From contig JALUTT010000147.1 in assembly GCA_027021705.1 (NCBI GenBank), positions 1-25,196 on the forward strand: a DNA stretch of 25,196 nucleotides, written 5' to 3'. The first letter of the stretch is position 1. Each line of letters opens with the position of its first letter. Made by a program: the position numbers and the translations under genes. The notes under the pieces were generated by a model that did not search any database, was not told the DNA's origin, and saw only the letters and a list, made by a program, of their open reading frames with translations. The DNA comes from Anaerolineae bacterium (GTDB lineage Bacteria > Chloroflexota > Anaerolineae > S140-20). Positions 5,906-24,660 of the stretch are shown piece by piece.

Positions 5906-6165
5906 AGTCCTCGGTCCTCGCCCCTTGCCTCTTGCCCCTTGCCCCTTGCCTCTTGCCCCTTGGCCCGTTGGTCGAGTGGTCAGGTGGTCGCGTGGTCGGC
6001 GGTCGGTTACGCCGTCCTCAGCCCTCGGTGCCTCGGCCCTCAGTGCCCCCCTTGCTCGGCGGTCGGCGGTCGGCTACGCCGTCCTCAGTCCTCAGTCCTC
6101 GGTCCTCAGTCCTCAGTCTTCGGCCCTCGGTGCCTCGGCCCTTAGCCCTCGGTGCCTCCCTTAGC
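5906..6165. repeat. Mosaic of short tandem repeats between trpS and trpB2
   Basis: About 6 x CC(C/T)CTTG, about 4 x TGGTCG-like 8-mers, runs of GTCCTCA/GTCCTCG/GCCCTCG, duplicated GGCGGTCGG(T/C)TACGCCGTCCTCAG. Confidence 0.85.
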
Positions 6166-6176
6166 CGCCCATCGGC

Positions 6177-9593: not shown

Positions 9594-9902
9594 GGGCAGG
9601 GCTTGCCCGATCCCTCTGCTTGCCGGGACGCTTCTGCACAGGCGCAGTGATCACTCTTCCCTGTCTCCATTCCCGCCCAGGGCGAGACGTGGTGGCTCTC
9701 CCTAGCTCTTACTGGAGGCGGGCTATGGTTGCCCTTCCTTCCTCTTCCCGTCTGCCTCCTTCGCCCTACTTCTTCCTGCTCGAAAGCTATGGGCTTTGCC
9801 GTTCATCGGGGATCAGGACCTGGATTCGGTGAACAGGCCCGTGGATCTGAAGGCTATGGTCTCCCCACCTCCGCATCTGAAACTGTTGAAGGAGGATTTG
9901 GA

Positions 9903-12900
9903 ATGAAGCGATTGGTACGTCTTCTGCTCATCCTGATCGTGGGCCTGGGCCTCGTTCTCCTGCGCTTGGCTCACGTTCCGGCTCAGGCCGACGGTGCCAC
10001 CCCGCTTCTCATCAGCGAAGTCCTCTACGATCCCCCCGGCCCTGAGCCGGATGGGGAGTGGATCGAGGTCTACAACCGTGGTGACACCACCGTGGACCTC
10101 CACGACTACAAGGTGGGTGACGACGAGAAGGTGCGCGGCGGGGCCGAGGGGATGATGCAGTTTCCCGCCGGAGCCACCCTCGATCCGGGAGAGGCGGTCG
10201 TCGTCGCCAACAAGGCTACGGCCTTCTTCAACCTCTACGGCTTCAACCCCGACTACGAGATGTACGACTCCGACCCCAACGTCCCCGACATGATCCAGTA
10301 CCTGGCTTGGAGCAACGGGGATGTCAACCTGCGCAACGCCGGGGACGAGGTCCTGCTTCTGGACAGGGCGGACAACGTCGTGGATGCCCTCTCCTGGGGG
10401 GACTCCGACTACGCTTTCGGCGACTCCCCGGCCCCGGTGGTCGCCGAAGGCCATTCCCTGGAGCGGTATCCCCCCTACCAGGATACCGACACGGCCGATG
10501 ACTGGCGAGACCAGCCATCGCCCAGCCCGGGCACCGTCCCGGCTGCTCCCACACCCACGCCGACGTCGCCTGCACCCACACCGACGCCTACGCCGACGCC
10601 CACGCCGACGCCCACCCCTGCTCCGCCCCTTGCCGAGGTCCTCATCACCGAGATCATGCAGAACCCCAGGGCGGTCAGCGACTCCAACGGTGAGTGGTTC
10701 GAGATCTACAACGCCGGCGACACCACCGTGGACCTGGAGGGGTGGACCTTCCGCGATGCCGACACCGACAGCTTCGTCATCGTCGGCTCGCTGCCCATTG
10801 CCCCCGGCGACTACCTGGTGCTGGGCCGCAACGGGGATCCCGGCCAGAACGGTGGCGTGACCCTGGACTACGTCTACGGCAGCGATATGGCCCTGAGCAA
10901 CGGGGCCGACGAGATTATCATCGAGGACGCCGACGGACGGGAGGTGGACCGCGTCGAGTACGACGGCGGCCCCGAGTGGCCCGACCCCAACGGCGCTTCG
11001 ATGATGCTCAAGGACCTGGCCCTGGACAACAACGTGGGGGCCAACTGGCAGGAGACTCCCCCCGACCTGACCTACGGCGACGGCGACCGGGGGACCCCCG
11101 GCTGCCCCAACGACGGCTGCCCGCTGGACTACACCCCCATCTACGACATTCAGTACACCACCGACCCCGGCGGCGACTCCCCCCTGGTGGGCCAGGTGGT
11201 CACCACCGAGGGCATCGTCACCGCCCGCTTCCGGTACGGCTACTTCATCGAGGACCCGGCGGGCGGGGCCTGGAACGGTCTCTGGGTCCACGACACGACC
11301 AACACCCCCGACCGGGGGGATCGGGTGCGCATCACCGGTGAGGTGGCCGAGTACTACGGCCTCACCGAGCTGGACAACCTGACCGCCTACGAGGTCGAGT
11401 CCAGCGGTAACCCCCTGCCCGACCCCGTCGTGCTCCCCACCGGCGATGTCTCCCAGGAGCAGTGGGAGGGGGTCCTGGTCCGCGTCGAGAACGTCACCGT
11501 GGTCAACGCCGACCTGGGCTACGGCGAGTGGTCGGTGGACGACGGCTCCGGTGAGGTGATCATTGACGACAAGGGGGACTACACCTACACGCCCACCGAG
11601 GGCGACGAACTCCGCTCCATCACCGGGCCGCTGGACTACCACCACGGGGCCTTCAAGATCCAGCCCCGGGACGACGCCGACATCGTGCTGCCGGCCGGTC
11701 CGGCCCCCGTCCTCATCTCCGAGATCCAGACGGGCGGGGCCACCGGCAGCGACGAGTTCATCGAGCTCTACAACCCCTCCGACAGCGAATCCTTCAACCT
11801 GAAGGGCTACCGCCTGGTCTACCGCTCCGCCTCGGGCACCACCGACTACCTGCGCTACGAGTGGACGGAGGATACCTTCATCTCGCCCTACGGCCACTAC
11901 CTGCTGGTCAACGAGAGCGGCTACGACGGCGACGTGCCCGGCGACGCCACCTACAGCCAGGGGCTCTCGGGCACGGGCGGCGGCCTGGCCCTGCGCAACC
12001 CCGACGGGGAGATCGTGGACTCGGTGGGCTGGGGGACGGCCAGCAACGACTTTGTCGAGGGGAGCCCGGCGCCGGCCCCGCCGGCCGACCAGAGCATCGA
12101 GCGGCTGCCCGGCGGCGACGAGGGCAATGGGCAGGACACCGACGACAACAGCGCCGACTTCCAGGTCATTGACCCGCCCAACCCCCAGAACACCGACAGC
12201 CCCTCCACCCCCTCGCTGGTCATCCCCATCGGCGAGGCCCGCACCCGCCCCTTGGGCAGCGAGGTGATCGTCGAGGGGACGGTCACCGTCCCGCCCGGCA
12301 CCTACAACAAGGGCTTCGCCATCCAGGACGAGACGGGCGGCATCTACGTCTACAACGACGGCGGCCTGCTCCCCTACGGCCTGGGCGACGTCCTGCGGGT
12401 GAAGGGGCCGCTGACCGAGTACCGGGGGCTGCTGGAGATCACGCCGGCCGAGGCCGACGTCACCCTGGTGGGCAGCGCCCCGGTCCCCGACCCCCGGCCC
12501 TACCACACCGGCGAGATCTCCGAGGCGACGGAGGGCTGGCTGGTGGTGATCAGCGGCACCGTGACCAGCGTCTCCGACAGCAGCTTCACCGTGGACGACG
12601 GCTCCGGCCCGGCCACCGTCTACATTGACTCCGACACGGGCATCGAGATCACCGACCTGGAGCCGGGCACCTTCGCCGAGGTCGTCGGCTTCAGCAGCCA
12701 GTACGACCCCTCCGCCCCCTACGACAGCGGCTACCAGGTGATGCCCCGCTTCCAGGAGGACCTGACCTTCACCGTGGTGCCCGTCTACCAGGGCGACTGC
12801 CCGGCCCCGGCCCCCCTCTCCACCGAGCCGACCGTCCTCATCAACCAGGTCCTCTACGACACCTGGGAGCACGGCCACGAGGAGGTGGGCGAGGCGGTCC

Positions 12901-15392
12901 AGCTCTGGAACCCCAACGACGCCGAGGTGGACCTCTCCGGCTGGGCGCTGACGGACAATGAGGGGACGGCGACCTTCCCCGCCGGCACCACCATCCCGGC
13001 CCAGGGCACCCTCTGGGTGGCGAAGGACGGGGACGACTTCACTGCCAGCTTCGGCTTCGCCCCCGACCTGACCTACGCCGAGATGACCGTCAGCGGCACG
13101 CTCCAGTTGGACAACGTGGCCGATGAGGTGGTCCTGCTGGACGGGACGGGGGCCGTCGTGGACGCGCTGGTCATCGAGGACGGCTGCGCCCTGGAGCAGA
13201 GCGGCTGGGCCGACGACCACGGTGTCTCCCCCTACCTCTTCGCCAGCTACGTTCCCGACGACGGCCAGGTCCTCTACCGCAAGCTGGACGAGGCGACCGG
13301 CCTGCCCGTGCCCGACACGGACACGGCGGCCGACTGGGCCCAGGACCCCAACGATCCGACGCTGGGCCGCCACGTCCGCTACCCCGGCTGGGACCTGGAG
13401 CAGTTCTTCTTCCCGGCCCAGGCCGAACAGGCGGCGACAACGAAGCTCCTGGTCGCCCCCGACAACATCTACGAAGGCGTGGCCGAGCTGATAGACAACG
13501 CCCAGTCCACCATTGACATCGAGCTCTACCTCTTCACCAACCCCTACCTGGCCGACCACCTCTTCGCGGCGATGGACCGAGGGGTCCAGGTGCGGGCCCT
13601 CTTCGAGGGCGAGGTCTACGGCGCGCCGGGCGGCACCTACGACGACGTCCGCTGGGTGGCCCAGGGGATCTACGAGCGGGGCGGTGAGGTCTACTGGTGG
13701 CGGGACGCTCCCGACGGTCACCCCGACCGCTACAACAACGTCCACCAGAAGTTCCTCATCGTGGACGGCACCTGGGCCTTCATCAGCAGCGAGAACCTGA
13801 CCCAGGGCTCGATGCCGGCCGACGACAAGGGGAACGGCACCTACGGCAACCGGGGGGCGGCCATCATCACCAACGCGCCCGTCGTCGTCCAGCGGTTGCA
13901 GGAGGTCTTCGCCGCCGACCTGGACCCCGACCACCACGGCGACGTGGTGCCCCACAACCCGGCCCCCTACCCCGACGGGGACGCGCCGCCGGAGGGGTAC
14001 GTGCCCGAGTACGAGGGCGACCGGGAGGGGTACACGCCCGTCAAGCCGGAGCCGCTGACGCTGGAGGGCGAGGCCACCTTCGAGGTCGTCCAGTCGCCCG
14101 AGAGCAGCCTGCGCACCTCCGACGCGCTGCTGGGGATGGTGGCCCGGGCCGATGCGGGCGACGTGGTGCTGGTGGAGCAGCAGTACGAGTACCTGACCTG
14201 GGGGCCGGAGGGGGCGGAGATGACCAACCCCCGCCTGAACGCCTACATCGAAGCGGCCCGGCGCGGGGCCACCGTCCGCGTGCTCCTCAACGGGGCCTAC
14301 GGTCTGGAGCGGAACATCGAGACGCGGGACTACTTGAACGACCTGGCGGCCGCCGAGGGGCTGGACCTGGAGGCCCGGCTGGGGACGCCCACCAGCGGCA
14401 TCTCCGGCACGGAGACGATCACCAAGCCCATCCACAACAAGATGGTGCTGGTCTACGACGGGGAGAGCGGCGGCTGGGTCCACGTGGGGAGCATCAACGG
14501 CTCCGAGAACGCCAGCCGGTACAACCGGGAGGTGGCCCTCCAGATCGGCTCCACCGAGGCCTACGTCTACTACGCCGACGTCTTCCACCACGACTGGCTG
14601 GCGGCGGGTGGGGAGCCCTTCCCCTACGCCCCGCCGGAGGCCGCCTTCACCCCCAGCGCCACGGAGGTGGTGCGCGGCGATCCCATCACCTTCACCAACG
14701 AGAGCAGCGGCTCGCCGCCGCTGAGCTACCGGTGGGACTTCGGCGACGGCGAGTTCAGCGACGAGGAGAGCCCCACCCACGTCTACCGGCGTCCCGGCGT
14801 CTACACGGTGACGCTGACGGTGAGCAACCCCCTGGGGACCGACCAGGCCCAGGCGGTGATCACCGTGCTCCCCCTGGTGGAACCGCTGGAGGAGTGGCAG
14901 GTCCGCGCCGCCGTCATCCAGTGGTTCCCGCTGCGCGATGGGCAGGGCGGCTTCGTCGCCCTGGCCCGGCTGGAGCTCCCGCCGGACTATCGGCGCGAGG
15001 ACCTGAGCGGTGAGATGACGCTGGAGCTGACCATCGGCGGCCGGACGGGGAGCGACACGGTGCACCTGATCAAGCGGCGGCGGATTTGGCGCTACCACCG
15101 CCGGCACGGCGACGGCGAGGGGGACGGCCTGGACCTGAGCCACGTGGTCATTTTCTGGCGCAACGACCGGAAAGCGCCCGTGGTCCAGTTGATGGGGCGG
15201 TTCAACCTGCCGGGGACGGGCTGGTGGACCCATCCGGCCGAGGCGACCTTCGGCATCCAGTTCCCTGTGACGACGCCGGGGCTGGCCGACCTGGTGGCCG
15301 GGGAGACGACGGTGACGTTCCGGGTGCTGGGCTTCCGCTGGGTCTACCAGGCGGGGATGCCCCGGATCCCCCGGCCCCGGCCCCTCCGGTAG
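9903..15392 (+). CDS. Secreted multidomain protein: 4 lamin-tail domains, OB folds, phospholipase D superfamily pair, PKD domain
   Basis: Signal peptide MKRLVRLLLIL...AQA; ISEV/ITEI/ISEI/INQV...E(W/F)xExYN lamin-tail repeats; PT linker; VTTEGIVT and FTVDDGSG OB folds; HQKFLIVD and HNKMVLVYD...GSIN; SYRWDFGDG...PTHVY PKD; RBS GGAGG. Confidence 0.88.
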   Translation: MKRLVRLLLILIVGLGLVLLRLAHVPAQADGATPLLISEVLYDPPGPEPDGEWIEVYNRGDTTVDLHDYKVGDDEKVRGGAEGMMQFPAGATLDPGEAVVVANKATAFFNLYGFNPDYEMYDSDPNVPDMIQYLAWSNGDVNLRNAGDEVLLLDRADNVVDALSWGDSDYAFGDSPAPVVAEGHSLERYPPYQDTDTADDWRDQPSPSPGTVPAAPTPTPTSPAPTPTPTPTPTPTPTPAPPLAEVLITEIMQNPRAVSDSNGEWFEIYNAGDTTVDLEGWTFRDADTDSFVIVGSLPIAPGDYLVLGRNGDPGQNGGVTLDYVYGSDMALSNGADEIIIEDADGREVDRVEYDGGPEWPDPNGASMMLKDLALDNNVGANWQETPPDLTYGDGDRGTPGCPNDGCPLDYTPIYDIQYTTDPGGDSPLVGQVVTTEGIVTARFRYGYFIEDPAGGAWNGLWVHDTTNTPDRGDRVRITGEVAEYYGLTELDNLTAYEVESSGNPLPDPVVLPTGDVSQEQWEGVLVRVENVTVVNADLGYGEWSVDDGSGEVIIDDKGDYTYTPTEGDELRSITGPLDYHHGAFKIQPRDDADIVLPAGPAPVLISEIQTGGATGSDEFIELYNPSDSESFNLKGYRLVYRSASGTTDYLRYEWTEDTFISPYGHYLLVNESGYDGDVPGDATYSQGLSGTGGGLALRNPDGEIVDSVGWGTASNDFVEGSPAPAPPADQSIERLPGGDEGNGQDTDDNSADFQVIDPPNPQNTDSPSTPSLVIPIGEARTRPLGSEVIVEGTVTVPPGTYNKGFAIQDETGGIYVYNDGGLLPYGLGDVLRVKGPLTEYRGLLEITPAEADVTLVGSAPVPDPRPYHTGEISEATEGWLVVISGTVTSVSDSSFTVDDGSGPATVYIDSDTGIEITDLEPGTFAEVVGFSSQYDPSAPYDSGYQVMPRFQEDLTFTVVPVYQGDCPAPAPLSTEPTVLINQVLYDTWEHGHEEVGEAVQLWNPNDAEVDLSGWALTDNEGTATFPAGTTIPAQGTLWVAKDGDDFTASFGFAPDLTYAEMTVSGTLQLDNVADEVVLLDGTGAVVDALVIEDGCALEQSGWADDHGVSPYLFASYVPDDGQVLYRKLDEATGLPVPDTDTAADWAQDPNDPTLGRHVRYPGWDLEQFFFPAQAEQAATTKLLVAPDNIYEGVAELIDNAQSTIDIELYLFTNPYLADHLFAAMDRGVQVRALFEGEVYGAPGGTYDDVRWVAQGIYERGGEVYWWRDAPDGHPDRYNNVHQKFLIVDGTWAFISSENLTQGSMPADDKGNGTYGNRGAAIITNAPVVVQRLQEVFAADLDPDHHGDVVPHNPAPYPDGDAPPEGYVPEYEGDREGYTPVKPEPLTLEGEATFEVVQSPESSLRTSDALLGMVARADAGDVVLVEQQYEYLTWGPEGAEMTNPRLNAYIEAARRGATVRVLLNGAYGLERNIETRDYLNDLAAAEGLDLEARLGTPTSGISGTETITKPIHNKMVLVYDGESGGWVHVGSINGSENASRYNREVALQIGSTEAYVYYADVFHHDWLAAGGEPFPYAPPEAAFTPSATEVVRGDPITFTNESSGSPPLSYRWDFGDGEFSDEESPTHVYRRPGVYTVTLTVSNPLGTDQAQAVITVLPLVEPLEEWQVRAAVIQWFPLRDGQGGFVALARLELPPDYRREDLSGEMTLELTIGGRTGSDTVHLIKRRRIWRYHRRHGDGEGDGLDLSHVVIFWRNDRKAPVVQLMGRFNLPGTGWWTHPAEATFGIQFPVTTPGLADLVAGETTVTFRVLGFRWVYQAGMPRIPRPRPLR

Positions 15393-15457: not shown

Positions 15458-15610
15458 GGTGATTACCCATATCTTCGGAGATAGGGAGACCAGCCGTCCA
15501 CGAATGGGGCACGAATACACGAATGAAGGACCGCCTCATTCGTGCATTTGTGAGAAATTCGTGGACGGCCTGCTACGGACCACGCTCTCGCTCACTTGTG
15601 GGTAATCACC
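15458..15610. mobile_element. Repeat family A copy 2, 153 bp
   Basis: GGTGATTACCCATA...TGTGGGTAATCACC; colinear with 8-160 and 22225-22377. Confidence 0.85.
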
Positions 15611-15623
15611 GGTTGTTTTCGGC

Positions 15624-21099: not shown

Positions 21100-21816
21100 T
21101 CAGTCCTCGAGCTCGATGACCAACCGTTTGTTGATCCGCCCCTTGCTCTTGTAGTCCACGATGCGGATGCGCCCCACCTCGGAGGTGTTGGCCACGTGGG
21201 TGCCCCCATCGGCCTGGAGGTCCAGCCCCTCGATCTCCACCGTCCGCACCTGGGTGATCTGCGGCGGCAGGAGGTTGATCTTGGTGCGGATCAGGTCGGG
21301 GATCTGGAAGGCCTCTTCGCGGGGGAGGATGGCGATCTTGACGGGGCGGGCGGCGGCCACCTCGGCGTTGACCTTCTCCTCGATCTCCTGTACCAACTCC
21401 TTGCGCATCCGCTCAAACTCAAAGTCCATCCGGGCTCGGCCCGGCTGCATGTTGCCGCCGGTGACCTGAGCGCCGTAGTCCCGCCAGATGACGCCGGAGA
21501 GGATGTGGAGGGCGGTGTGGGTGCGCATGAGCTTGTAGCGGCGCTCCCAGTCCAGCCGGCCCACGACCCGGGTGCCCACGGGCGGCGGATCCCCGTCCAC
21601 CGTGTGCCAGACGGTGTCGCCCTGCTTCTTGACCCGGGTGACCGGCCAGGTCTGCTCGCCGGCCTGGAGCGTTCCGGTGTCGTGGGGCTGACCGCCGCCG
21701 CCGGGGTAGAAGGCGGTCCGGTCCAGCGCCACGGCCCTCGCCTCCGGGTCCACCGCCGTCACCGTGGCCTCGAACTCGCGCAGATAGCTGTCGGTCTGGT
21801 AGAGCAGGTCGGTCAT
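21100..21816 (-). CDS. AlaX-M-type trans-editing aminoacyl-tRNA deacylase
   Basis: LYQTDSY, TAFYPGGGGQPHDTG, MRTHTALH, ARMDF, QADGGTHV; RBS AGGAGG. Confidence 0.9.
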   Translation of the reverse strand: MTDLLYQTDSYLREFEATVTAVDPEARAVALDRTAFYPGGGGQPHDTGTLQAGEQTWPVTRVKKQGDTVWHTVDGDPPPVGTRVVGRLDWERRYKLMRTHTALHILSGVIWRDYGAQVTGGNMQPGRARMDFEFERMRKELVQEIEEKVNAEVAAARPVKIAILPREEAFQIPDLIRTKINLLPPQITQVRTVEIEGLDLQADGGTHVANTSEVGRIRIVDYKSKGRINKRLVIELED

Positions 21817-21849: not shown

Positions 21850-22165
21850 AAGCAAACCGGCTCCCGTCCCAAAGGGACGAGAGCCGGACAGCGCTCCCGC
21901 GGTACCACCCTTCTTCCCCACAGTGTGGGGCTCTCTGTCGGCGACGCCGGGCTTCCCGGTGCCTGAAGCGGTCGGAGCCCTTGATCACCGCGTCCCGGTA
22001 ACGGGGGACGAGGCCGGCTGCGTCTACTGGGCCGGGGAGCGCCCCCGACCGTTCGGGCAGCGGCTCCGGAGGGATTTTCGACGGGGCTCGCGCGTCCGGC
22101 TCCCACCTTCCCGGACTCTCTGGGGCGCTACCTCCCGCCTACTCGTCTCCATCATCGCCTTTGGC
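21850..22165 (-). promoter_or_regulatory. T-box riboswitch, Ile (AUC) specifier
   Basis: Minus strand: GATGATGGAGACGAGTAG, CAGAGAG, GGTGGGA, GAAA-ATC-C-CTCC (ATC 22075-22073), AGTAG/CCGTTA, T-box AAGGGTGGTACCGCG, 14-bp terminator stem 21857-21887 plus TTTGCTT. Confidence 0.9.
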
Positions 22166-22224: not shown

Positions 22225-22377
22225 GGTGGTTACCCATATCTTTGGAGATAGGGAGACGAGCCGGCCACGAATGGAGCACGAATACACGAATTAAGGACCG
22301 CCTCATTCGTGCATTTGCGAGAAATTCGTGGACGGCCTGCTATGGACCACTCTCTCGCTCACTTGTGGGTAATCACC
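22225..22377. mobile_element. Repeat family A copy 3, 153 bp
   Basis: GGTGGTTACCCATA...TGTGGGTAATCACC; colinear with the other two copies. Confidence 0.85.
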
Positions 22378-22410
22378 GCACCGAAGCGCTTGCGGGGCAA
22401 TCGTCTCCCA

Positions 22411-24660
22411 TCTGCTCAATCCGTTCTTAAGCGGATTGCTGTCAACGGATTAGGGGAGCGGATTGAACGGAACTGATGCCCCCCCATCCGCTCAATCCGT
22501 TCTCAAATCCGCTGACAGCTATCCGTTCTCAAGCGGATTGCTGTCAACGGATTCGGGGAGCGGATTGCTGTCAACGGATTAGGGGAGCGGATGGAACGGA
22601 ACTGATGTCCCCCCATCCGTTCAATCCGTTCTCAAATCCGCTGACAGCTATCCGTTCTTAAGCGGATTGCTGTCAACGGATTCGGGGAGCGGATTGAACG
22701 GAACTGATGCCTCCCCATCCGCTCAATCCGTTCTCAAATCCGCTGACAGCTATCCGTTCTCAAGCGGATTGCTGTCAACGGATTAGGGGAGCGGATGGAA
22801 CGGAACTGATGTCCCCCCATCCGTTCAATCCGTTCTCAAATCCGCTGACAGCTATCCGTTCTTAAGCGGATTGCTGTCAACGGATTCGGGGAGCGGATTG
22901 AACGGAACTGATGCCTCCCCATCCGTTCAATCCGTTCCTTAAAATCCGCTGACAGCTATCCGTTCTCAAGCGGACTGCTGTCAACGGATTCGGGGAGCGG
23001 ATTGAACGGAACTGATGCCCCCCATCCGTTCAATCCGTTCCTTAAAATCCGCTGACAGCTATCCGTTCTCGAGCGGATTGCTGTCAACGGATTCGGGGAG
23101 CGGATTGAACGGAACTGATGCCTCCCCATCCGTTCAATCCGTTCCTTAAAATCCGCTGACAGCTATCCGTTCTCGAGCGGACTGCCGTCAACGGATTCGG
23201 GGAGCGGATTGAACGGAACTGATGCCCCCCATCCGTTCAATCCGTTCCTTAAAATCCGCTGACAGCTATCCGTTCTCGAGCGGACTGCCGTCAACGGATT
23301 CGGGGAGCGGATTGCTGTCAACGGATTCGGGGAGCGGATTGAACGGAAAGGTGTGCTCCCAAGAAGGCATTCCAACCGACCAGAACCCCTGACGAAGCAC
23401 CGGCACCCCCTCAGGCGAACTTCGACGGACCGCCTACGGAGAGCTGCCGTTCCCTATCCGTTCAATCCGTTCTCAAATCCGCTGACAGCTATCCGTTCTT
23501 AAGCGGATTGCTGTCAACGGATTCGGGGAGCGGATTGAGCGGAACTGATGCCTCCCCATCCGTTCAATCCGTTCCTTAAAATCCGCTGACAGCTATCCGT
23601 TCTCAAGCGGATTGCTGTCAACGGATTCGGGGAGCGGATTGAACGGAAAGGTGTGCTCCCAAGAAGGCATTCCAACCGACCAGAACCCCTGACGAAGCAC
23701 CGGCACCCCCTCAGGCGAACTTCGACGGACCGCCTACGGAGAGCTGCCGTTCCCTATCCGTTCAATCCGTTCTCAAATCCGCTGACAGCTATCCGTTCTT
23801 AAGCGGATTGCTGTCAACGGATTCGGGGAGCGGATTGAGCGGAACGGTCATCCCCCATCCGCTCAATCCGTTCTCAAATCCGCTGACAGCTATCCGTTCT
23901 TAAGCGGATTGCTGTCAACGGATTCGGGGAGCGGATTGAGCGGAACTGATGCCCCCCATCCGTTCAATCCGTTCCTTCAAATCCGTTGACAGCCTCTCAC
24001 CCCAAGGCGGACTGCTGTCAACGGATTCGGGGAGCGGATTGAGCGGAACTGATGCCCCCCATCCGTTCAATCCGTTCCTTCAAATCCGTTGACAGCCTCT
24101 CACCCCAAAGCGGACTGCCGTCAACGGATTCAGGGAGCGGATGGAACGGAACGGTCATCCCCCATCCGCTCAATCCGTTCCTTCAAATCCGTTGACAGCC
24201 TCTCACCCCAAAGCGGACTGCCGTCAACGGATTCAGGGGGCGGATGGAACGGAACGGTCATCCCCCATCCGTTCAATCCGTTCTCAAATCCGCTGACAGC
24301 TATCCGTTCTCAAGCGGACTGCTGTCAACGGATTCGGGGAGCGGATTGAACGGAACTGATGCCCCCCATCCGTTCAATCCGTTCTCAAATCCGCTGACAG
24401 CTATCCGTTCTCAAGCGGACTGCCGTCAACGGATTCGGGGAGCGGATGGAACGGAACTGATGTCCCCCCATCCGTTCAATCCGTTCTCAAATCCGCTGAC
24501 AGCTATCTGTTCTCAAGCGGATTGCTGTCAACGGATTCGGGGAGCGGATGGAACGGAACTGATGCCCCCCATCCGCTCAATCCGTTCCTTCAAATCCGCC
24601 GACAGCTATCCGTTCTCAAGCGGACGGCCGTCAGCGGATCGGGGGAGCGGATTAAGCAGA
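22411..24660. repeat. Tandem array of 19 nested-palindromic ~101-104-bp units plus partial end units
   Basis: Consensus GCGGATTGCTGTCAACGGATTCGGGGAGCGGATTGAACGGAACTGATGCCCCCCATCCGTTCAATCCGTTCTCAAATCCGCTGACAGCTATCCGTTCTCAA; 19 GACAG right arms counted by eye. Confidence 0.95.

Follow-up and report, generated by a model that had tools for sequence, protein, structure and literature searches.

Long junctions in a CGGATT repeat array of an uncultured Anaerolineae bacterium are probably seams between stacked palindromic elements

The window, a stretch of 25,196 nucleotides (nt) considered here at its full length, is contig C147 of a 5.19-Mb metagenome-assembled genome (MAG, G000) of an Anaerolineae bacterium, which comprises 183 contigs and is 94.9% complete and 4.5% contaminated. 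Between a gene for a free-standing AlaX-like editing domain and an open reading frame (ORF) without a Pfam match lies an intergenic tandem array of palindromic CGGATT repeats, in which two of the loops between repeat arms hold a segment of 107 nt in place of the usual short sequence. A first-pass annotation had taken this segment for foreign cargo, carried in the loop like a spacer or cassette, or for the relic of a gene once flanked by the arms. We consider it probable instead that the 107-nt "insert" is the seam of two adjacent full-length palindromic elements, similar to MITEs (transposable elements of miniature size with inverted repeats), that are stacked in the array.

The array is made of 35-nt arms of alternating orientation, spaced in turn by a 20-nt linker (TATCCGTTCTYRAGCGGATT), itself palindromic, and by a loop or junction. 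Each unit pairs a left-type arm with a right-type arm that is its near-complement. The features of the array, with the left outer (LO) and right outer (RO) segments named according to the reading that we favour, are as follows.

about 22382 to 24655, no strand: tandem array with some 20 units, mostly 101-104 nt long, two of them measuring 196 and 223 nt
22382-22412, no strand, left array edge: apparently truncated left outer segment (3' part of LO), CACCGAAGCGCTTGCGGGGCAATCGTCTCCC
23306-23545, no strand: exact duplicated block, copy 1, 240 nt, 100% identical to copy 2
23606-23845, no strand: exact duplicated block, copy 2, 300 nt downstream of copy 1
23314-23348 (repeated at 23614-23648), plus strand: left-type arm, GCTGTCAACGGATT-CGGGGA-GCGGATTGAACGGAA, preceding long junctions 1 and 2
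23349-23399 (copy 2, 23649-23699), plus strand: putative RO of the upstream element, ending in CCCCTGACGAAGCA
23400-23403 (copy 2, 23700-23703), no strand: 4-mer CCGG between the two putative element ends, in the same place as the putative target-site 4-mer of single elements
23404-23455 (copy 2, 23704-23755), plus strand: putative LO of the downstream element, starting with CACCCCCTCAGGCG and ending in GAGCTGCCGTTCCCT
23456-23489 (repeated at 23756-23789), plus strand: right-type arm, ATCCGTTCAATCCGTTC-TCAA-ATCCGCTGACAGC, following long junctions 1 and 2
23278-23341, also 22532-22592, no strand: 27-nt internal duplication of the outer half of an arm, a mosaic variation in the array
23979-24285, no strand: three units in which the linker half TATCCGTTCTCAAG is swapped for CTCTCACCCCAARG, a second variant module

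The two 240-nt blocks are identical throughout, with identity ending exactly at both block boundaries, and their 300-nt spacing is as the first-pass annotation had reported. The 107-nt segments within them (23349-23455 and 23649-23755) are likewise identical, and the arms flanking them are intact and are exact copies of other arms in the array. These two are the exceptions among 19 arm-to-arm loops; the other 17 measure 12-13 nt and represent five near-identical variants of the sequence CTGATGCCYCCCC. The exact 240-nt repeat and the arm-flanked long loops are beyond chance.

Scanning the MAG for the inner-arm motif with at most one mismatch returned 483 sites in 131 clusters on 81 of the 183 contigs, the window array being the largest cluster (38 arm sites). 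The 107-nt segment recurs within this family: an nhmmer profile built from six copies found 11 full-length matches (two in C147, four in C151, one in C65, three in C99, and one in C48) and about 25 of half length; in every case the same arms adjoin. By blastn, the four C151 copies are 96-98% identical to those of the window, and C80 begins with a cut copy. When arm pairs were sought irrespective of the loop between them, related, diverged long loops also emerged in C65 (108 nt) and C99 (132 nt), together with shorter loop forms in C71, C144, C92, C100, C83, and C167. Across the genome, 105 arm-to-arm junctions were counted, 87 of at most 20 nt, 8 of 21-60 nt, 1 of 61-100 nt, 8 of 101-115 nt, and 1 longer. 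The 107-nt segment is a native module of the repeat family and not a one-off.

These results bear directly on the proposal that the loop captures foreign DNA in the style of a CRISPR spacer or an integron cassette, which we regard as extremely improbable. Loop content does differ among loci and genomes, and the C71 junction contains a piece of another repeat family, as capture would lead one to expect. Against it stand the recurrence of the segment at 11 full and about 25 partial sites, the near-identity of 17 of the 19 window loops, palindromic units of ~102 nt that are unlike CRISPR repeats, the lack of any ORF of at least 80 amino acids (aa) inside 23306-23845 (the cut-off of the window ORF list), and the lack of a cas or integrase gene in Pfam scans of 16 window ORFs. 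A CRISPR array was rejected as a candidate on the same grounds, the loops being of five near-identical kinds rather than unique spacers between identical repeats. The first-pass annotation had proposed comparing the insert with host, phage, and plasmid sequences. The host yielded the copies in C151 and C80, and the 240-nt block had no match among 50,697 phage and 72,556 plasmid records searched in distant mode. In 400 other Anaerolineae genomes, neither the C147 nor the C65 version of the segment was found, the matches being at chance level only (three at E 0.004-0.007), and a metagenome scan with a junction 24-mer matched only the window contig and C151. The outer segments therefore look specific to this lineage. 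Moreover, the supposed cargo splits in its middle into two element ends.

This split is visible at eight loci (in C140, C181, C137, C34, C61, C109, C104, and C175), where elements centred on the linker are embedded in unique DNA with the halves of the segment at their outer ends, giving the succession LO, right-type arm, linker, left-type arm, RO. At their outer tips these elements carry TACCTCATCAA and TTGATGAGGTA, which are inverted repeats of each other. The elements C140:14724-15028 and C181:19844-20148, both 305 nt long and set in unrelated flanks, agree at 292 of 305 positions (96%), have perfect terminal inverted repeats (TIRs; TACCTCATCAA / TTGATGAGGTA), and contain internal loops (23-25 nt) matching the 3' part of LO. 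These two youngest copies are flanked by the 4-mers CTAG/CTAG and CTAT/CTAT; since CTAT is not self-complementary, the flanks are direct repeats, as a target duplication would give. Beside the remaining element ends the 4-mer is mostly CTAG, with some cases of CCAG, CTAA, CTAC, and CCGG. Full junctions hold a single 4-mer between RO and LO, namely CCGG in C147, C65, and three of the four C151 copies, CTGG in the remaining C151 copy, and CCAG in C99. At C99:61152-61285, a stretch of 20 unrelated bases with CTAG and CTAC at its borders keeps RO and LO apart.

Because single elements end in the middle of the "insert", with TIRs and, in the two youngest copies, matching 4-mers, we read the 107 nt as RO, CCGG, and LO, at the coordinates listed above. 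A full element consists of an LO of ~52 nt beginning with the TIR TACCTCATCAA, a right-type arm, the 20-nt linker, a left-type arm, and an RO of ~51 nt ending in TTGATGAGGTA, and would be seated between two copies of a CTAG-like 4-mer. Two full elements placed head to tail would leave RO, one 4-mer, and LO as a block of ~107 nt between a left-type and a right-type arm, and the whole array would be a pile of such small palindromic elements, non-coding and belonging to an uncultured Anaerolineae bacterium. The partial LO at the left edge of the array (22382-22412) fits the seam reading; no RO was seen at the right array edge. Like MITEs, the elements are small (~200-305 nt), non-coding, and multi-copy in unrelated flanks.

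The element could also be centred on the loop, as a hairpin of left arm, loop, and right arm, in which case the 107 nt would be the original core, the short loops deleted cores, and the half-length matches truncated copies. In other Anaerolineae genomes, single elements are indeed loop-centred hairpins, bounded by CTGTCA...TGACAG with loops of 12-149 nt, and the 171 nt at 23318-23488 fold as one long hairpin (-36.5 kcal/mol, z -4.1). This arrangement is hard to reconcile with the eight loci at which the halves lie outside linker-centred elements, all with the same end in mid-core, a TIR, and CTAG-like 4-mers, with the linker-centred layout of the two 305-nt elements in unrelated flanks, or with the C99 halves parted by 20 unrelated bases, and we judge it unlikely.

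Several observations weigh against stacked full-length elements. The same arms form loop-centred hairpins without outer segments in other genomes. Of the five elements with both ends visible (in C99, C34, C137, C140, and C181), only two have identical flanking 4-mers; the flanks of C137 (CTGG/CCGG) and of the first C99 element (CTAG/CCAG) are each alike at three of four positions, and those of C34 are ambiguous by one alignment base. In the window itself the TIRs at the junction are decayed, CACCCCCTCAGGCG and the complement of CCCCTGACGAAGCA being alike at 8 of 14 positions. Neither an empty site for these elements nor a master copy combining these TIRs with a transposase came to light; for the master copy the search covered the MAG, which is incomplete and hence does not show absence. 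Pairs of the 11-nt TIR within 6 kb of each other in the MAG comprise only the two 305-nt elements and three chance pairs, none enclosing a gene; single TIR matches number 122, most of them in coding sequence. Finally, the source is a metagenomic assembly with the completeness, contamination, and fragmentation given above, and CGGATT arrays break assemblies, with 22 of the 131 clusters lying at most 300 nt from a contig end, so copy numbers within arrays may be wrong.

The short loops resemble the terminal bases of LO (GAGCTGCCGTTCCCT), and graded intermediates link them to the long junctions: in C144 the junction consists of an arm, CCGG, and LO (56-58 nt), in C83 and C167 it measures 29-31 nt and holds the start of RO and the end of LO, and the 23-25-nt internal loops of C140 and C181, with their likeness to the 3' part of LO, belong to the same series. 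From this resemblance and these intermediates we infer that the 12-13-nt loops are remnants of such junctions after internal deletion. The two long junctions, in turn, would have been made identical by a recent tandem duplication of 300 nt (one 196-nt long unit plus one 104-nt short unit), through unequal exchange or slippage. A recent local duplication is the simplest history for the exact copies and the best reading of them. Of the earlier proposal of one acquisition followed by duplication, the second half therefore stands, and C151 alternates alike; the acquisition of foreign DNA does not.

The C151 array shows the same alternation of long and short units, its four copies being spaced 198, 298, and 298 nt apart and differing by 2-4 bases, so the pattern is not the assembler's invention. 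This matters for the suspicion that the second window copy is an assembly artefact and that the real array has one long junction, since a short-read metagenome assembly does not easily resolve an exact 240-nt repeat whose copies are spaced 300 nt apart. The reads of the window are represented by Logan contigs of three runs (X1, X2, and X3), none of which spans the array. In X1, a 167-nt contig over 23619-23785 has a depth of 388 compared with 71-74 for the unique flanks; in X2, a 162-nt contig over 23324-23485 reaches 17.6 compared with 6.5-9.0; and in X3, contigs of the segment reach 25-39 compared with 8-18. The segment is multi-copy per genome, at 2-5 times the depth of the unique flanks in all three runs, which speaks against a single copy, although the arrangement of the copies is not given by the contigs. 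One X1 contig links 22649 to 24593 and represents a shorter form of the array, as an artefact would allow. In view of the depth and of the diverged copies in C151, we think an artefact distinctly unlikely.

Outside this MAG, the arms occur in other Anaerolineae (Chloroflexota) MAGs, including members of Caldilineaceae, Anaerolineaceae, and Longilinea. In a Longilinea MAG (L096:353-832), they enclose an intact ORF of 159 aa that matches PF13366 (E 4.8e-30) and TIGR04256, the GxxExxY family (E 6.7e-32). G000 itself has seven PF13366 matches, among them a 153-aa gene (C52:449-907) that is followed directly by a 35-site array of the CGGATT family. Orthologues of the C52 protein were sought in 401 Anaerolineae genomes, and 30 loci were examined. 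The 12 best-scoring loci (E 7.5e-65 or better, 63-99% identity) come from 12 genomes of several families and have differing neighbour genes, and all 12 carry arm motifs within ~250 nt of the gene. The motifs stand on both sides in 10 of them, mostly as complete hairpins, and only downstream in L151 and only upstream in L156. Arm motifs were lacking at 14 of the 18 lower-scoring loci, a set that includes L168 from the unpublished genome G388. In these varied genomic surroundings, the repeat thus frames orthologues from a single GxxExxY subfamily.

A similar association appears at genome level. Among the first 40 relatives, eight have arms, and four of these eight (G009, G010, G013, and G025) have an orthologue at E 3e-35 or better, compared with none of the 32 relatives without arms. 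Arms can also persist where the gene is missing: G015 (99% complete) gave 30 arm matches but no orthologue at E 1e-20. Ten of 122 arm-bearing stretches of other genomes contain GxxExxY coding sequence, two of them as loop relics (L098 and L107). The PD...E[IL]K motif is intact in all 13 orthologues, two of which have an in-frame TAG. The arms are the cognate flanking hairpin repeats of one subfamily of GxxExxY (PDDEXK_3, PD-(D/E)xK) nucleases, and the nuclease may act on them. At four loci (L152, L154, L155, and L157, in G009, G363, G212, and G344), the GxxExxY frame extends into the downstream arm, the repeat itself supplying the stop codon and the final residues (ELSAD or ELSTDSGN).

With an intact gene between arms in L096 and loops of ~100 nt in L098 and L107 that match the 3' end of the gene (E 5.8e-5 and 6.6e-7), the 107 nt could be pictured as the decayed relic of a GxxExxY gene once enclosed by the arms. 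The earlier suggestion that arms can flank a gene or varied loops holds elsewhere in Anaerolineae, where loops range from 12 to 149 nt, but not for the window insert. A tblastn search with the 13 orthologues against 14 long junctions of the MAG reached E 0.057 at best, in a database that is tiny, and the nhmmer profile of the segment matched none of the 30 gene-bearing loci, nor L096. A gene relic is accordingly very improbable, and the segment is not a spacer, not a cassette, and not a recognisable gene relic in the window.

Other GxxExxY genes of G000 (C83:28048-28395, C162:22128-22457, C116:10814-11158, C145:131767-132120, and C36:10098-10838) are flanked by inverted runs of differing motifs, by eye CGCGAAT, CACGGATG, CACAAAG, ACGCAGAG, and CACGAT-like, which suggests one private repeat per GxxExxY paralogue. 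RAYT transposases were rejected as partners of the arms. Of the two IS200-like Y1 (RAYT-type) genes observed in G000, the one at C49:17783-18202 has GC-rich hairpin arrays of another repeat (GCCCCGCCGTGGAACCGGCGGGGC) on both sides, and the one at C14:16093-16506 has an unrelated array (~100-nt period) in front and a single CGGATT element behind, so that the repeat stands on one side of the gene only. In G010, G015, and G025, eight Y1_Tnp matches were inspected (two fall under the Pfam cut-off), and none has an outer-arm motif nearby at up to two mismatches.

The remaining features adjoining the array are listed here.

22211-22183, minus strand, left of the array: promoter-like site (TTGACA, 17 nt, CATAAT), 11 of 12 matches
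21870-22164, minus strand: T-box leader, E 6e-17, 79.8 bits, under the Rfam gathering score of 93
21887-21857, minus strand: T-box terminator
21100-21816, minus strand: free-standing AlaX-like editing-domain gene, downstream of the T-box leader
ending at 24652, minus strand, right of the array: ORF without a Pfam match

Two same-family genomes share the conserved T-box leader and promoter, and no array is found at their orthologous AlaX/T-box loci; the upstream neighbours there differ, and these loci are thus not usable as empty sites. The three other genomes of the family, these two included, gave no arm matches. At the Rfam gathering score no part of the window matched, and at an E-value threshold the array matched only miRNA-precursor models, far under their cut-offs, as generic hairpins do. 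A second palindromic MITE-like element of ~155 nt, with TIRs GGTGRTTACCCA...TGGGTAATCACC and an inner hairpin of ACGAAT motifs, occurs in the window at 22226-22381 and 15458-15612 and also at C151:4675-4821; in C147 as in C151 it lies directly against the left edge of the CGGATT array. Its Logan depth is 60-170 times that of the unique flank, and contigs diverge at 22378-22381, the end of the element. Elsewhere in the window, a plus-strand ORF of 1887 aa (9729-15392) encodes four lamin-tail domains, PLD-like nuclease/phospholipase domains, and a PKD domain; an ORF of the same length on the opposite strand, which matches nothing in Pfam, is probably spurious. Intergenic short tandem repeats with periods of 7, 14, 15, 21, and 39 nt lie at 5916-6166 and 1226-1309 (for example, seven copies of CCTTGCC and five of GTCCTCA).

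The family shares traits with several known systems. In Escherichia coli, bacterial interspersed mosaic elements (BIMEs) exist as short and long linker variants. BIMEs, clusters of repetitive extragenic palindromes (REPs) found in Enterobacteria with RAYT transposases, resemble the window array in their short alternating arms, alternating linkers, intergenic tandem arrangement, and mosaic variants, and are described as regularly spaced REPs in alternating orientations with a linker of variable length (PMC2817692, PMC3333891). Units of alternating orientation with alternating linkers are likewise present in the window. However, the CGGATT arms are built of iterated CGGAT(T) motifs and are not self-palindromic 20-40-mers, and the gene that accompanies them encodes a PD-(D/E)xK GxxExxY nuclease, not a Y1 RAYT. 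With bacterial MITEs (Correia/NEMIS, ERIC, and RUP), the elements share small size, lack of coding capacity, intergenic location, TIRs, near-identical copies in unrelated flanks, and, in the two youngest copies, flanking direct 4-mers. The interior of such an element can be a tandem repeat, as in the Porphyromonas gingivalis MITE BrickBuilt, whose interior includes a minisatellite (PMC4596501). In contrast to MITEs, no parent insertion sequence was found for the CGGATT elements in the MAG, the elements are stacked head to tail with one 4-mer at each boundary, and their inner part is common to a nuclease gene cassette found across the whole class. The closest counterparts in gene content are the repeat-bracketed GxxExxY (TIGR04256 / PF13366) cassettes, in which a small PD-(D/E)xK gene is accompanied by hairpins of a short iterated motif that differs by paralogue. 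From these, the window array differs in having no gene, and the lineage appears to have added outer segments with terminal repeats of their own.

The function of GxxExxY is listed as "Unknown" in a table of PMC3424549, and the text seen of 10.1101/2021.01.26.428298 only names the domain. Literature searches on GxxExxY, PDDEXK_3, PF13366, and TIGR04256 found no description of a link between the gene and hairpin repeats, and searches on Anaerolineae with MITE, palindromic, or repeat gave no paper on the CGGATT family among the matches listed. The repeat family is undescribed and in kind ordinary selfish DNA; its unusual feature is the tie to a PD-(D/E)xK nuclease gene.

Our analysis removes a tempting but wrong reading, as the array does not store foreign DNA. 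The window instead holds the MAG's largest array of a repeat with class-wide conservation in Anaerolineae and with a gene-by-gene tie to one subfamily of the function-unknown GxxExxY nucleases. The apparently lineage-specific outer ends, the terminal repeats, and the CTAG-like flanks offer a concrete picture of how such elements may move, perhaps by transposition with a 4-bp target duplication, and stack. More speculatively, and in our estimation improbably, the CGGATT arrays might be non-autonomous partners of a mobile system driven by the GxxExxY nuclease, which would cut and re-ligate elements. The nuclease would recognise the iterated CGGAT motifs of the arms and make a 4-nt staggered cut at the CTAG- or CCGG-like sites at element ends, where GTA-CTAG-TAC and GTA-CCGG-TAC read as hexamer palindromes, and excised elements would be re-joined into other cut sites or to each other. 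If true, this would account both for the 4-mer "duplications" and for the head-to-tail stacks with a single 4-mer per junction, including the two 107-nt junctions of the window, and would constitute a route of transposition without a transposase.

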